Positions 44,933-46,030 of a stretch of DNA of 64,000 bases are shown here, one piece after another. This DNA is from Naegleria gruberi (Eukaryota): NCBI GenBank assembly GCA_000004985.1, contig GG738914.1. The stretch is one strand, 5' to 3'. The number at the start of each line of letters is the position of its first letter. The first letter of the stretch is position 1. The notes below the pieces were generated by a model. The model did no database searches, was not told the origin of the DNA, and saw only the letters and a list, made by a program, of their open reading frames with translations. The translations under genes and the position numbers were made by a program.

Positions 44933-46030
44933 ATGGCATCTAATTCAATTCCAGCACTTTTTGAACCAATTACCATAAGAGGAATGACCTTAAAGAATAG
45001 AATTGTGGTCGCACCAATGTGTCAATACTCTTGCAATGATGGATTTGCAAATACTTGGCATCAAATTCATGCTACTTCGAGAATTGTTGGTGGAGCTGCA
45101 TTATTCATTATGGAAGCCACAGGAGTTTCGGCCATTGGAAGAATTTCACCTAACTGTTTAGGATTATATAAGGATGAACATGTGGAAATGTTGAAAACCA
45201 TTGTAGATCAATCACATGAATTGGGTGGAAAGATTGGAATTCAATTGGCACATGCTGGACGAAAGGCAAGTTTAGGTAGATTATGGGATAGTGGAAGATT
45301 GGCTTTATCTGAAGATAGAGGTGGTTGGGAAGTTGTCGGTCCATCTGAATTGCAATTTGATGATATTCACAAAATGCCAAGGGAAATTACCATTCCAGAA
45401 ATTGAGGAAACTATTAAGGATTTCATTGAGGCTGCTAAGAGAGCTGTTAAAGCAGGATTTGATGTGATTGAGATTCACGGAGCTCATGGTTATTTGATTC
45501 ACTCGTTCATGTCACCTGTGTCAAATTTGAGAACTGACATGTATGGTGGAAGTTTTGAAAATAGAACGAGATTATTGTTGCAAATTGTTGATGGAGTGCG
45601 AGGTGTTATTCCTGAGGAAATGCCATTGTTTGTGAGATTGTCATGTGAAGATTATATGGAAGAAGGTTGGACAAGTGATGATACTGTCAAAGTTTCACAA
45701 ATTCTCAAAGATCATGGTGTTGATTTGATTGATTGCTCAACCGGTGGAACTAAACCAATTCAAAACGTTCATGGTTTGGTTGTTGAACCTGGTTATCAAG
45801 TTAAATATTCAGTTGCTATCAAGGAAAAGGTTGACATTTTGACAGGAGCTGTTGGTAAATTAGAAGATCCAATTTTGGCCAATAAGGTCATTGAGGAAAA
45901 GAAAGCAGACCTCGTTTTGATTGGTAGAGCCATGATGGGTGATCCTTACTGGGCTTTGAGAGCTGCCAAAACTCTTGGTTATGCCAATGCTGGAATTCCG
46001 CCTCAATACGGTTTCGCCATCAATTTGTAA
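44933..46030 (+). CDS. NADH:flavin oxidoreductase, Old Yellow Enzyme family, YqjM (bacterial thermophilic-like) subclass
   Basis: Intronless. The motifs [77 protein letters not shown] and [10 protein letters not shown] match Bacillus YqjM block by block. Confidence 0.9.
   Translation: [365 protein letters not shown]

Follow-up and report, generated by a model that had tools for sequence, protein, structure and literature searches.

Hydride transfer from flavin mononucleotide (FMN) to an activated alkene, coupled to protonation by a tyrosine, is the established chemistry of the Old Yellow Enzymes (OYEs). One class of these enzymes, founded on Bacillus subtilis YqjM, reportedly goes by two names, being Class II sensu Nizam 2014 and Class III sensu Peters 2019; its members are dimers of dimers that share active sites between subunits, bind FMN, and use NAD(P)H to reduce activated alkenes. 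The class is defined by Cys26/Tyr28 of YqjM (in the motif PMCxYS) in place of the Thr37 region of OYE1 (PMC3915301). Nizam et al. (2014) assigned 127 of 424 fungal OYEs to their YqjM-like “Class II” (PMC3915301), and a fungal member of the class, AfOYE1, has been crystallized (PMC10787880). Here, we analyzed a 64,000-nucleotide stretch of Naegleria gruberi contig GG738914.1 (GenBank assembly GCA_000004985.1; hereafter, the window), in which the open reading frame (ORF) at positions 44933..46030 on the plus strand encodes a YqjM/thermophilic-like OYE. The coding sequence runs from ATG to stop (365 amino acids plus the stop codon), exactly as located in an initial annotation made from the DNA letters. 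An exact protein look-up matched its product at 100% to N. gruberi XP_002670543.1 (NAEGRDRAFT_74504), which lies on a contig of 233 kb and is annotated only as “predicted protein”. Residues 6 to 360 align to bacterial enzymes within this single ORF with no segment missing, and the gene is therefore intronless, as previously described. We conclude that the ORF is a genuine, intact nuclear gene, and that its product is a new, uncharacterized, and fairly ordinary member of a well-known enzyme class. A literature search for Naegleria together with OYE or Oxidored_FMN, or for the accessions, found nothing relevant, with the list of horizontal gene transfers (HGT) in the N. gruberi genome paper falling outside its coverage.

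Sequence and fold comparisons agree on the class of the encoded protein. Residues 9 to 348 match the Pfam family Oxidored_FMN (PF00724), a TIM-barrel (beta/alpha)8 domain, with an E value of 4.5e-78. When solved structures were searched, the thermophilic-like OYEs of Thermus scotoductus and Chloroflexus scored best (~1e-101), YqjM reached 1.5e-87, and members of the class extended down to 1e-81, whereas structures of the classical OYE, OPR, and PETNR types reached only ~1e-34; the Naegleria protein is thus closer to the YqjM class, and the similarity is far greater than chance could give. An AlphaFold2 model (predicted local distance difference test [pLDDT] score, 89.3; predicted template modeling score, 0.91) yielded template modeling (TM) scores of 0.93 against CaOYE (7o0t), 0.92 against TsOYE, 0.92 to 0.93 against AfOYE1, and 0.89 against YqjM. 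One result pulls in the other direction: the protein scores 377 bits against the NCBIfam equivalog NF010047 (“NADPH dehydrogenase NamA”), below the cutoff of 431, so that NamA would be the wrong name for it.

We aligned the protein with the B. subtilis YqjM sequence, which is identical to that of PDB 1z41, and compared residue states among 13 heterolobosean sequences and 129 others. All residues of the catalytic machinery that define the YqjM class are kept in the Naegleria OYE and in each of the 13 heterolobosean sequences, and the four motifs quoted in the initial annotation are all present in the translation and align with YqjM column for column. The class-specific N-terminal active-site motif, Cys30-Gln31-Tyr32 (45020..45028), corresponds to YqjM Cys26/Tyr28. 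The FMN- and substrate-binding stretch Q104-L-A-H107-A-G-R110-K111 within IQLAHAGRK (45242..45265) is identical to its YqjM counterpart (Q102 to K109) and invariant in our alignment (A2). Also invariant is His182-Gly-Ala-His185-Gly-Tyr187 within IHGAHGY (45476..45493), which supplies the His/His substrate anchor and the tyrosine proton donor of YqjM (His164/His167 and Tyr169), with a His/His rather than a His/Asn pair. The FMN-binding set of YqjM (Ala60, Gln102, Lys109, Arg215, and Arg308) recurs in full as Ala62, Gln104, Lys111, Arg235, and Arg332. Residues 113 to 133, just past HAGRKA (45269..45331; pLDDT, 74 to 82), form a segment ~17 residues longer than that of Bacillus YqjM, GkOYE, and TOYE; in the alignment, a similar segment occurs in the Thermus and Chloroflexus enzymes and in most of the class. 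The class feature that we did not find is the C-terminal arginine “finger” that reaches the active site of the neighboring subunit. The position of YqjM Arg336 is instead occupied by Phe361 (46013..46015), in a C terminus reading PPQYGF rather than QYERGW. Phenylalanine or tyrosine stands at this position in 12 of the 13 heterolobosean sequences, and arginine in 83 of the 129 others. Accepted members of the class are known to carry aromatic fingers (RmER Phe368 and AfOYE1 Trp399; PMC10787880), so we regard Phe361 as a variant state that does not exclude the protein from the class. The substitution may shift substrate or cofactor preference.

Among characterized enzymes, the best matches in both sequence and fold are TsOYE/CrS of Thermus scotoductus (3hf3, 8uaj) and CaOYE of Chloroflexus aggregans, at 46 to 47% identity and a root mean square deviation of 1.6 to 1.7 Å. 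These share with the Naegleria OYE the Cys/Tyr and His/His/Tyr sets, the FMN-binding residues, and the longer segment after HAGRKA, but they are bacterial, carry an arginine finger (Arg325 in CaOYE; PMC10787880), and come from hosts of very different composition (FYMINK, a measure of amino acid composition, is 0.14 on the Thermus side and 0.26 on the Naegleria side). B. subtilis YqjM is 46% identical, and its Cys26, Tyr28, Gln102, Lys109, His164, His167, Tyr169, Arg215, and Arg308 all have equivalents in the Naegleria protein, but it lacks the ~17 residues after HAGRKA and ends in QYERGW, with its arginine finger, where the Naegleria protein ends in QYGFAINL. The Naegleria OYE thus resembles the Thermus/Chloroflexus type slightly more closely than it does Bacillus YqjM. 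The YqjM-like OYEs of Fungi and Amoebozoa (AfOYE1/afvA, 8j59; AnOYE8, 7qfx; BfOYE4, 7blf; the Schizosaccharomyces pombe C23G7.10c type; and Dictyostelium XP_637191) are likewise products of eukaryotic nuclear genes, belong to the same class, have the same catalytic residues, and often have an aromatic finger. They differ in their lower identity (41 to 49%), their own insertions, and N-terminal extensions of 30 to 50 residues.

The nearest relatives of the Naegleria OYE are heterolobosean, not bacterial. A homologue in Naegleria lovaniensis is 63% identical, and another four paralogues in N. gruberi itself (NAEGRDRAFT_60504, 44902/60833, and 81529) are 60 to 61% identical, giving N. gruberi a family of at least five members with the gene described here. 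Willaertia magna has at least three copies at about 58% identity, Heterolobosea sp. BB2 has two transcripts at 54%, and several metagenomic sequences are also close. The Willaertia copies lie on contigs of 0.27 to 0.85 Mb beside BBS7, ArfGAP, IQGAP/filamin, and armadillo-repeat genes. The N. lovaniensis gene contains a 167-nucleotide GT..AG intron within the catalytic HG|AHGY motif (positions 10611 to 10777 of the locus sequence L001, from PYSW02000040.1), excision of which restores the annotated protein exactly. Its nearest N. gruberi paralogue (the 60504 type; P0004/P0122) is called as a single ORF, which suggests that an intron was gained or lost within Naegleria. GC content at third codon positions (GC3) follows the respective host in every homologue (0.13 to 0.35). 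We found no shared neighbors, and neither the tRNA-Gly nor the CDC123 gene that flank the N. gruberi gene, at the N. lovaniensis, Willaertia, or closest metagenomic (L005) loci, and no contig encoding the paralogue P0006 is on record. A 54% identical sequence that keeps the arginine finger, P0029 (GCA_006365135.1, VFQM010008585.1; L004, 1391 to 2557), lies on a 4.5-kb AT-rich eukaryotic contig, where it adjoins a SCAMP gene. No Naegleria fowleri protein was among the best 120 matches, compared with one from its close nonpathogenic relative N. lovaniensis, a protein-level result with no check made at the genome level; the difference may reflect copy number or loss in the pathogen.

Across representatives, the family is overwhelmingly prokaryotic. 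An exhaustive HMMER scan of 1.84 billion representative sequences returned 26,890 members, of which 3,178 had E values of ≤1e-30. Beyond Heterolobosea, the best matches in 5.8 billion proteins are bacterial, at 53 to 55% identity (Acidobacteriota, Bacteroidota, Chloroflexota, and Planctomycetota), led by Paludibaculum, a Pedobacter sp., and Ktedonobacteraceae, ahead of Fungi and Amoebozoa at 45 to 49%. Eukaryotes nevertheless carry the YqjM class widely, and its initial description as bacterial was oversimplified. Several of the representatives that initially clustered near the heterolobosean clade came from Blastocystis, Opalinidae, the gregarine Blabericola, Luapelamoeba, Dictyostelium discoideum (XP_637191), and the fungus Saitoella. 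A profile search built on 26 longer representatives (~390 to 450 amino acids) returned only eukaryotes among the named sequences in its best 120, including fungi (Ascomycota, Basidiomycota, Glomeromycota, Kickxellomycotina, and Basidiobolus, with “afvA” and the S. pombe C23G7.10c type among them) and amoebozoans (Dictyostelium, Acytostelium, and Balamuthia). Since fungal and amoebozoan members are found and the literature agrees, a YqjM-class OYE in a eukaryote is not anomalous in itself. We also noted that the Blastocystis, opalinid, and gregarine homologues (P0215, P0223, P0279, and P0191) have lost or altered the Cys26/Tyr28 motif (PPMCIFC, PPMILFN, and PPINTFA) along with the C-terminal QY motif, which suggests that their active sites have probably diverged. 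Two further sequences have unusual architectures: P0153 is 3,519 amino acids long with four separate OYE-matching stretches, and P0307 of Balamuthia mandrillaris (904 amino acids) joins its OYE domain to a SPRY domain (PF00622).

To place the heterolobosean sequences, we used a home-made maximum likelihood (ML) engine with a single matrix derived from Gonnet PAM250 log-odds (on recovery, its frequencies totaled 0.9995 and its rate was 2.50, both as expected), four Gamma categories (alpha, ~0.9), nearest-neighbor interchange (NNI), and local supports from the approximate likelihood ratio test (aLRT), its Bayesian form (aBayes), and resampling of estimated log likelihoods (RELL). In the 81-taxon ML tree, the heterolobosean sequences are monophyletic (aLRT, 15.5; RELL, 0.93), a clade that includes the two basal sequences P0029 and P0016. 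Naegleria (aLRT, 57.6) groups with Willaertia (16.0), BB2 branches beneath both, all of the N. gruberi paralogues are younger than the Naegleria/Willaertia split, and the gene at 44933..46030 is the first of the Naegleria paralogues to branch off. The family is thus old, dispersed, multicopy, nuclear, and vertically inherited within Heterolobosea (Naegleria, Willaertia, and sp. BB2). In the same tree, Fungi and Amoebozoa form a separate clade (aLRT, 61) with no robust link to the heterolobosean one, and in no ML tree search did the eukaryotic groups form one clade. We then re-attached the entire heterolobosean clade at every branch by subtree pruning and regrafting (SPR) and resampled the site likelihoods. 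With 85 taxa (seven long-branch taxa dropped) and 20 amino acid states, its favored position is sister to a Bacteroidota-dominated clade (RELL, 0.70). Recoding into the six Dayhoff classes, which takes out most of the compositional bias, makes this the best attachment in both taxon sets, with RELL values of 0.36 (+0.09) in the 92-taxon set and 0.73 in the 85-taxon set; placements among bacteria only then total 0.55 and 0.95, respectively, and the link to Fungi/Amoebozoa receives at most 0.04. Of the final SPR analyses, four in number, three favor as sister the Bacteroidota-dominated clade (Mucilaginibacter, Pedobacter duraquae, Spirosoma, Ferruginibacter, Chryseobacterium, and the protein P0244 from a metagenome-assembled genome), with only moderate support. 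Its members are bacterial and have an arginine finger, they are not the top BLAST matches, and the representative P0244 is ~42% identical to the Naegleria OYE. Two analyses based on distances disagreed with each other. An uncorrected neighbor-joining (NJ) tree of Kimura distances for 178 sequences grouped Heterolobosea with other eukaryotes; we gave this tree no deciding weight, since Gamma-corrected ML distances instead placed Heterolobosea next to Paludibaculum-type bacteria.

How a gene of a largely bacterial class came to stand in this chromosome can be explained in several ways. A bacterial contaminant or chimeric assembly in the Naegleria genome project would account for the bacterial look of the protein family and for nothing else that we observed. 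A eukaryote-type tRNA-Gly(GCC) gene lies 549 bp upstream (44314..44384, plus strand; found by ARAGORN and by Rfam at 66.9 bits, without an encoded CCA and with a T-run just downstream), and a convergent gene of the D123/CDC123 family lies 62 bp beyond the stop codon (46092..47438, minus strand; Pfam D123, 3.4e-13). Both are where they had been reported, on a contig of 233 kb, and other neighbors in the window (RRM, REJ/EGF, RCC1-like, and FAM135-like) are eukaryotic as well. The GC content (0.386) and GC3 (0.270) of the gene agree with the host, the GC3 of other long ORFs in the window ranging from 0.218 to 0.371, and homologues stand among eukaryotic genes in the independent N. lovaniensis assembly, with its spliceosomal intron, and in that of Willaertia. 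The gene is physically integrated in the host genome; contamination, already rejected in the initial annotation, is excluded, and we give it next to no credence. Hardly more probable is a recent acquisition by N. gruberi alone from a prey bacterium, which the soil bacteria among the best non-heterolobosean matches and the lack of introns might suggest. Almost all genes in the window are single long ORFs, however, and the N. lovaniensis homologue has an intron, so the intronless state that had been offered as a sign of foreign origin does not serve as one. The closest relatives are heterolobosean, at 58 to 63% identity, against only about 54% for the best bacterial match, the heterolobosean clade is supported, and the codon usage of the gene is the most host-like in the window (rank 1 of 23 ORFs by leave-one-out synonymous-codon log likelihood). 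Host-like codon usage had been noted before and holds; with neither foreign composition nor foreign codon usage, the gene fits only an old transfer. A recent N. gruberi-specific transfer is effectively refuted. Any transfer is older than the Naegleria/Willaertia split and probably also older than the split from Heterolobosea sp. BB2.

Two kinds of deeper history remain, and we consider it rather probable, though not proven, that a single ancient transfer from a bacterium to Heterolobosea was followed by vertical descent and duplication. The family would have entered the heterolobosean ancestor once, separately from the fungal/amoebozoan YqjM-like clade, from a donor that cannot be named with confidence, the nearest sampled relatives being the Bacteroidota-dominated clade; vertical descent, duplications after the Naegleria/Willaertia split, and full codon amelioration would have followed. 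A number of results weigh against this reading. In the 178-taxon 20-state ML placement, the Fungi/Amoebozoa stem had the highest RELL value (0.42), with 0.20 for a bacterial branch and 0.19 for the Blastocystis/opalinid stem; with 92 taxa and 20 states, eukaryote-adjacent placements summed to 0.68 and bacteria-only placements to 0.05. Placement therefore varies with method and taxon sampling, the uncorrected NJ tree and two 20-state ML placements being eukaryote-adjacent. The sister relationship to P0244 that the 81-taxon ML tree recovered (aLRT, 11) was a long-branch artifact that disappeared when 11 relatives of P0244 joined the data set. At depth, the tree is star-like (internal branches of 0.01 to 0.04 substitutions per site against terminal branches of 0.3 to 0.6), and the engine is limited by its single matrix, four Gamma categories, NNI search, and local supports. 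Favored partners also follow amino acid composition (FYMINK, 0.256 in Heterolobosea, 0.30 in the stramenopile-type group, 0.23 to 0.24 in Amoebozoa and the Bacteroidota clade, and 0.14 to 0.17 in Thermus and Acidobacteriota), so bias may play a part. Because the heterolobosean clade is sister to the Bacteroidota-dominated clade and not nested in it, direction and donor are only inferred. Moreover, no fewer than three further supergroup lineages of eukaryotes have the class, a spread that ancient eukaryotic ancestry with loss also predicts. According to that alternative, the gene dates to the last eukaryotic common ancestor (LECA), came with the mitochondrial ancestor, or spread between eukaryotes, and the heterolobosean family would have a common origin with the fungal/amoebozoan clade, the stramenopile clade, or both; the patchiness of the class would reflect loss, and the similarity to bacteria the slow evolution of a constrained enzyme. 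The presence of the class in Discoba, Amorphea (Fungi of all major phyla and Amoebozoa), and SAR (Blastocystis, Opalinidae, and a gregarine) argues for it, as do the 20-state placements with all taxa, the common occurrence of an aromatic finger among eukaryotic members, and the small deficit of the Fungi/Amoebozoa stem even with 85 taxa (8.2 log-likelihood units; RELL, 0.25). However, eukaryote-adjacent support collapses after Dayhoff recoding, to 0.28 with 92 taxa and 0.04 with 85, and the stramenopile-type group is very divergent and draws long branches. The alignment contains no indel that unites Heterolobosea with other eukaryotic groups, the bacterial matches are more similar than any non-heterolobosean eukaryote (44 to 49%), and no euglenozoan, jakobid, or other discobid was among the best 120 matches, no search having been aimed at other Discoba. 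We considered and rejected the aromatic finger as a eukaryotic synapomorphy; it is recurrent, since ~12% of the remaining sequences, most of them bacterial, have it, and arginine is kept in the basal members P0016 and P0029 and in one Willaertia copy. An ancient eukaryotic origin or spread between eukaryotes therefore strikes us as rather unlikely, and its strictest form, one acquisition at or near LECA with Heterolobosea, Fungi plus Amoebozoa, and Opalinata/gregarines as the survivors of massive loss, as improbable; all remaining explanations together have only a very small chance. We thus regard a separate bacterial source for the heterolobosean family as the better-supported hypothesis, plausible if not statistically secured. 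The earlier proposal of an old, ameliorated transfer fares accordingly: the observation behind it is confirmed, and any transfer was indeed old and is fully ameliorated. The transfer itself is the better hypothesis and is not demonstrated, since 20-state placement depends on sampling and the Bacteroidota-dominated sister is consistent only after recoding. The vertical eukaryotic clade that had been named as the contrary outcome was found in part, in that the gene falls inside a heterolobosean clade that descended vertically and has lineage-specific paralogues, but no robust tie joins this clade to the OYE clades of other eukaryotes.

From its family membership, we predict that the Naegleria OYE is a functional FMN-dependent NAD(P)H ene-reductase. 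NAD(P)H would reduce the FMN bound to the enzyme, and hydride would then pass from N5 of the reduced flavin to the beta-carbon of an activated C=C bond (in an enal, enone, maleimide, quinone, or nitro-alkene). The electron-withdrawing group of the substrate would be gripped by His182/His185, the alpha-carbon would be protonated by Tyr187, and Cys30/Tyr32 would line the flavin pocket. Unlike the fungal and amoebozoan proteins, the Naegleria OYE has no N-terminal extension, and it shows no obvious C-terminal targeting signal; the enzyme is therefore probably cytosolic. By analogy with bacterial members, its physiological role is probably the detoxification of reactive electrophiles and quinones, together with defense against redox stress.

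The remainder of the window adds several observations. Upstream of the tRNA-Gly gene, a minus-strand gene (40828..44070) encodes a 1,080-residue FAM135-like protein of the DUF676 serine esterase family (Pfam DUF676, 3.5e-21; DUF3657, 1.2e-4), and other proteins encoded in the window include RRM, REJ/EGF, RCC1-like, and hybrid histidine kinase types. In the CDC123 homologue, Pfam D123 covers only residues 219 to 407 and the N-terminal half is unrecognized, which marks it as a divergent CDC123. Just past it, a gene at 47654 to 50026 (minus strand) encodes the hybrid histidine kinase (790 amino acids; HisKA, HATPase_c, and a receiver domain), another bacterial-type signaling architecture nearby. 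The 1,242-residue protein encoded at 5532 to 9260 (plus strand) combines an AMP-binding domain with a terminal reductase domain (NAD_binding_4), resembling carboxylate reductases, nonribosomal peptide synthetase-like enzymes, or alpha-aminoadipate reductase. Three plus-strand tRNA-Ser genes (TGA, AGA, and AGA; 25825 to 26068 and 31598 to 31678), two of which sit 82 bp apart, flank the 1,386-residue REJ/EGF-domain gene at 27294 to 31454. The last kilobase of the window (63001 to 64000) has a GC content of 0.213, compared with 0.29 to 0.39 elsewhere.

These results allow a Naegleria “predicted protein” and its four paralogues to be named by function, as YqjM/thermophilic-like ene-reductases with a Phe finger, which is of modest practical value. 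They also offer a cautionary case for the study of HGT, in which the top BLAST matches are bacterial, yet the tree is prone to long-branch and compositional artifacts. Heterolobosea join the eukaryotes that carry the YqjM class, of which only fungal members have so far been described, and the family points to an uncharacterized, mesophilic, eukaryotic branch of enzymes that are heavily mined for biocatalysis. If the expansion in N. gruberi and the absence from N. fowleri hold, the family could bear on how free-living and pathogenic Naegleria handle electrophiles and redox stress.

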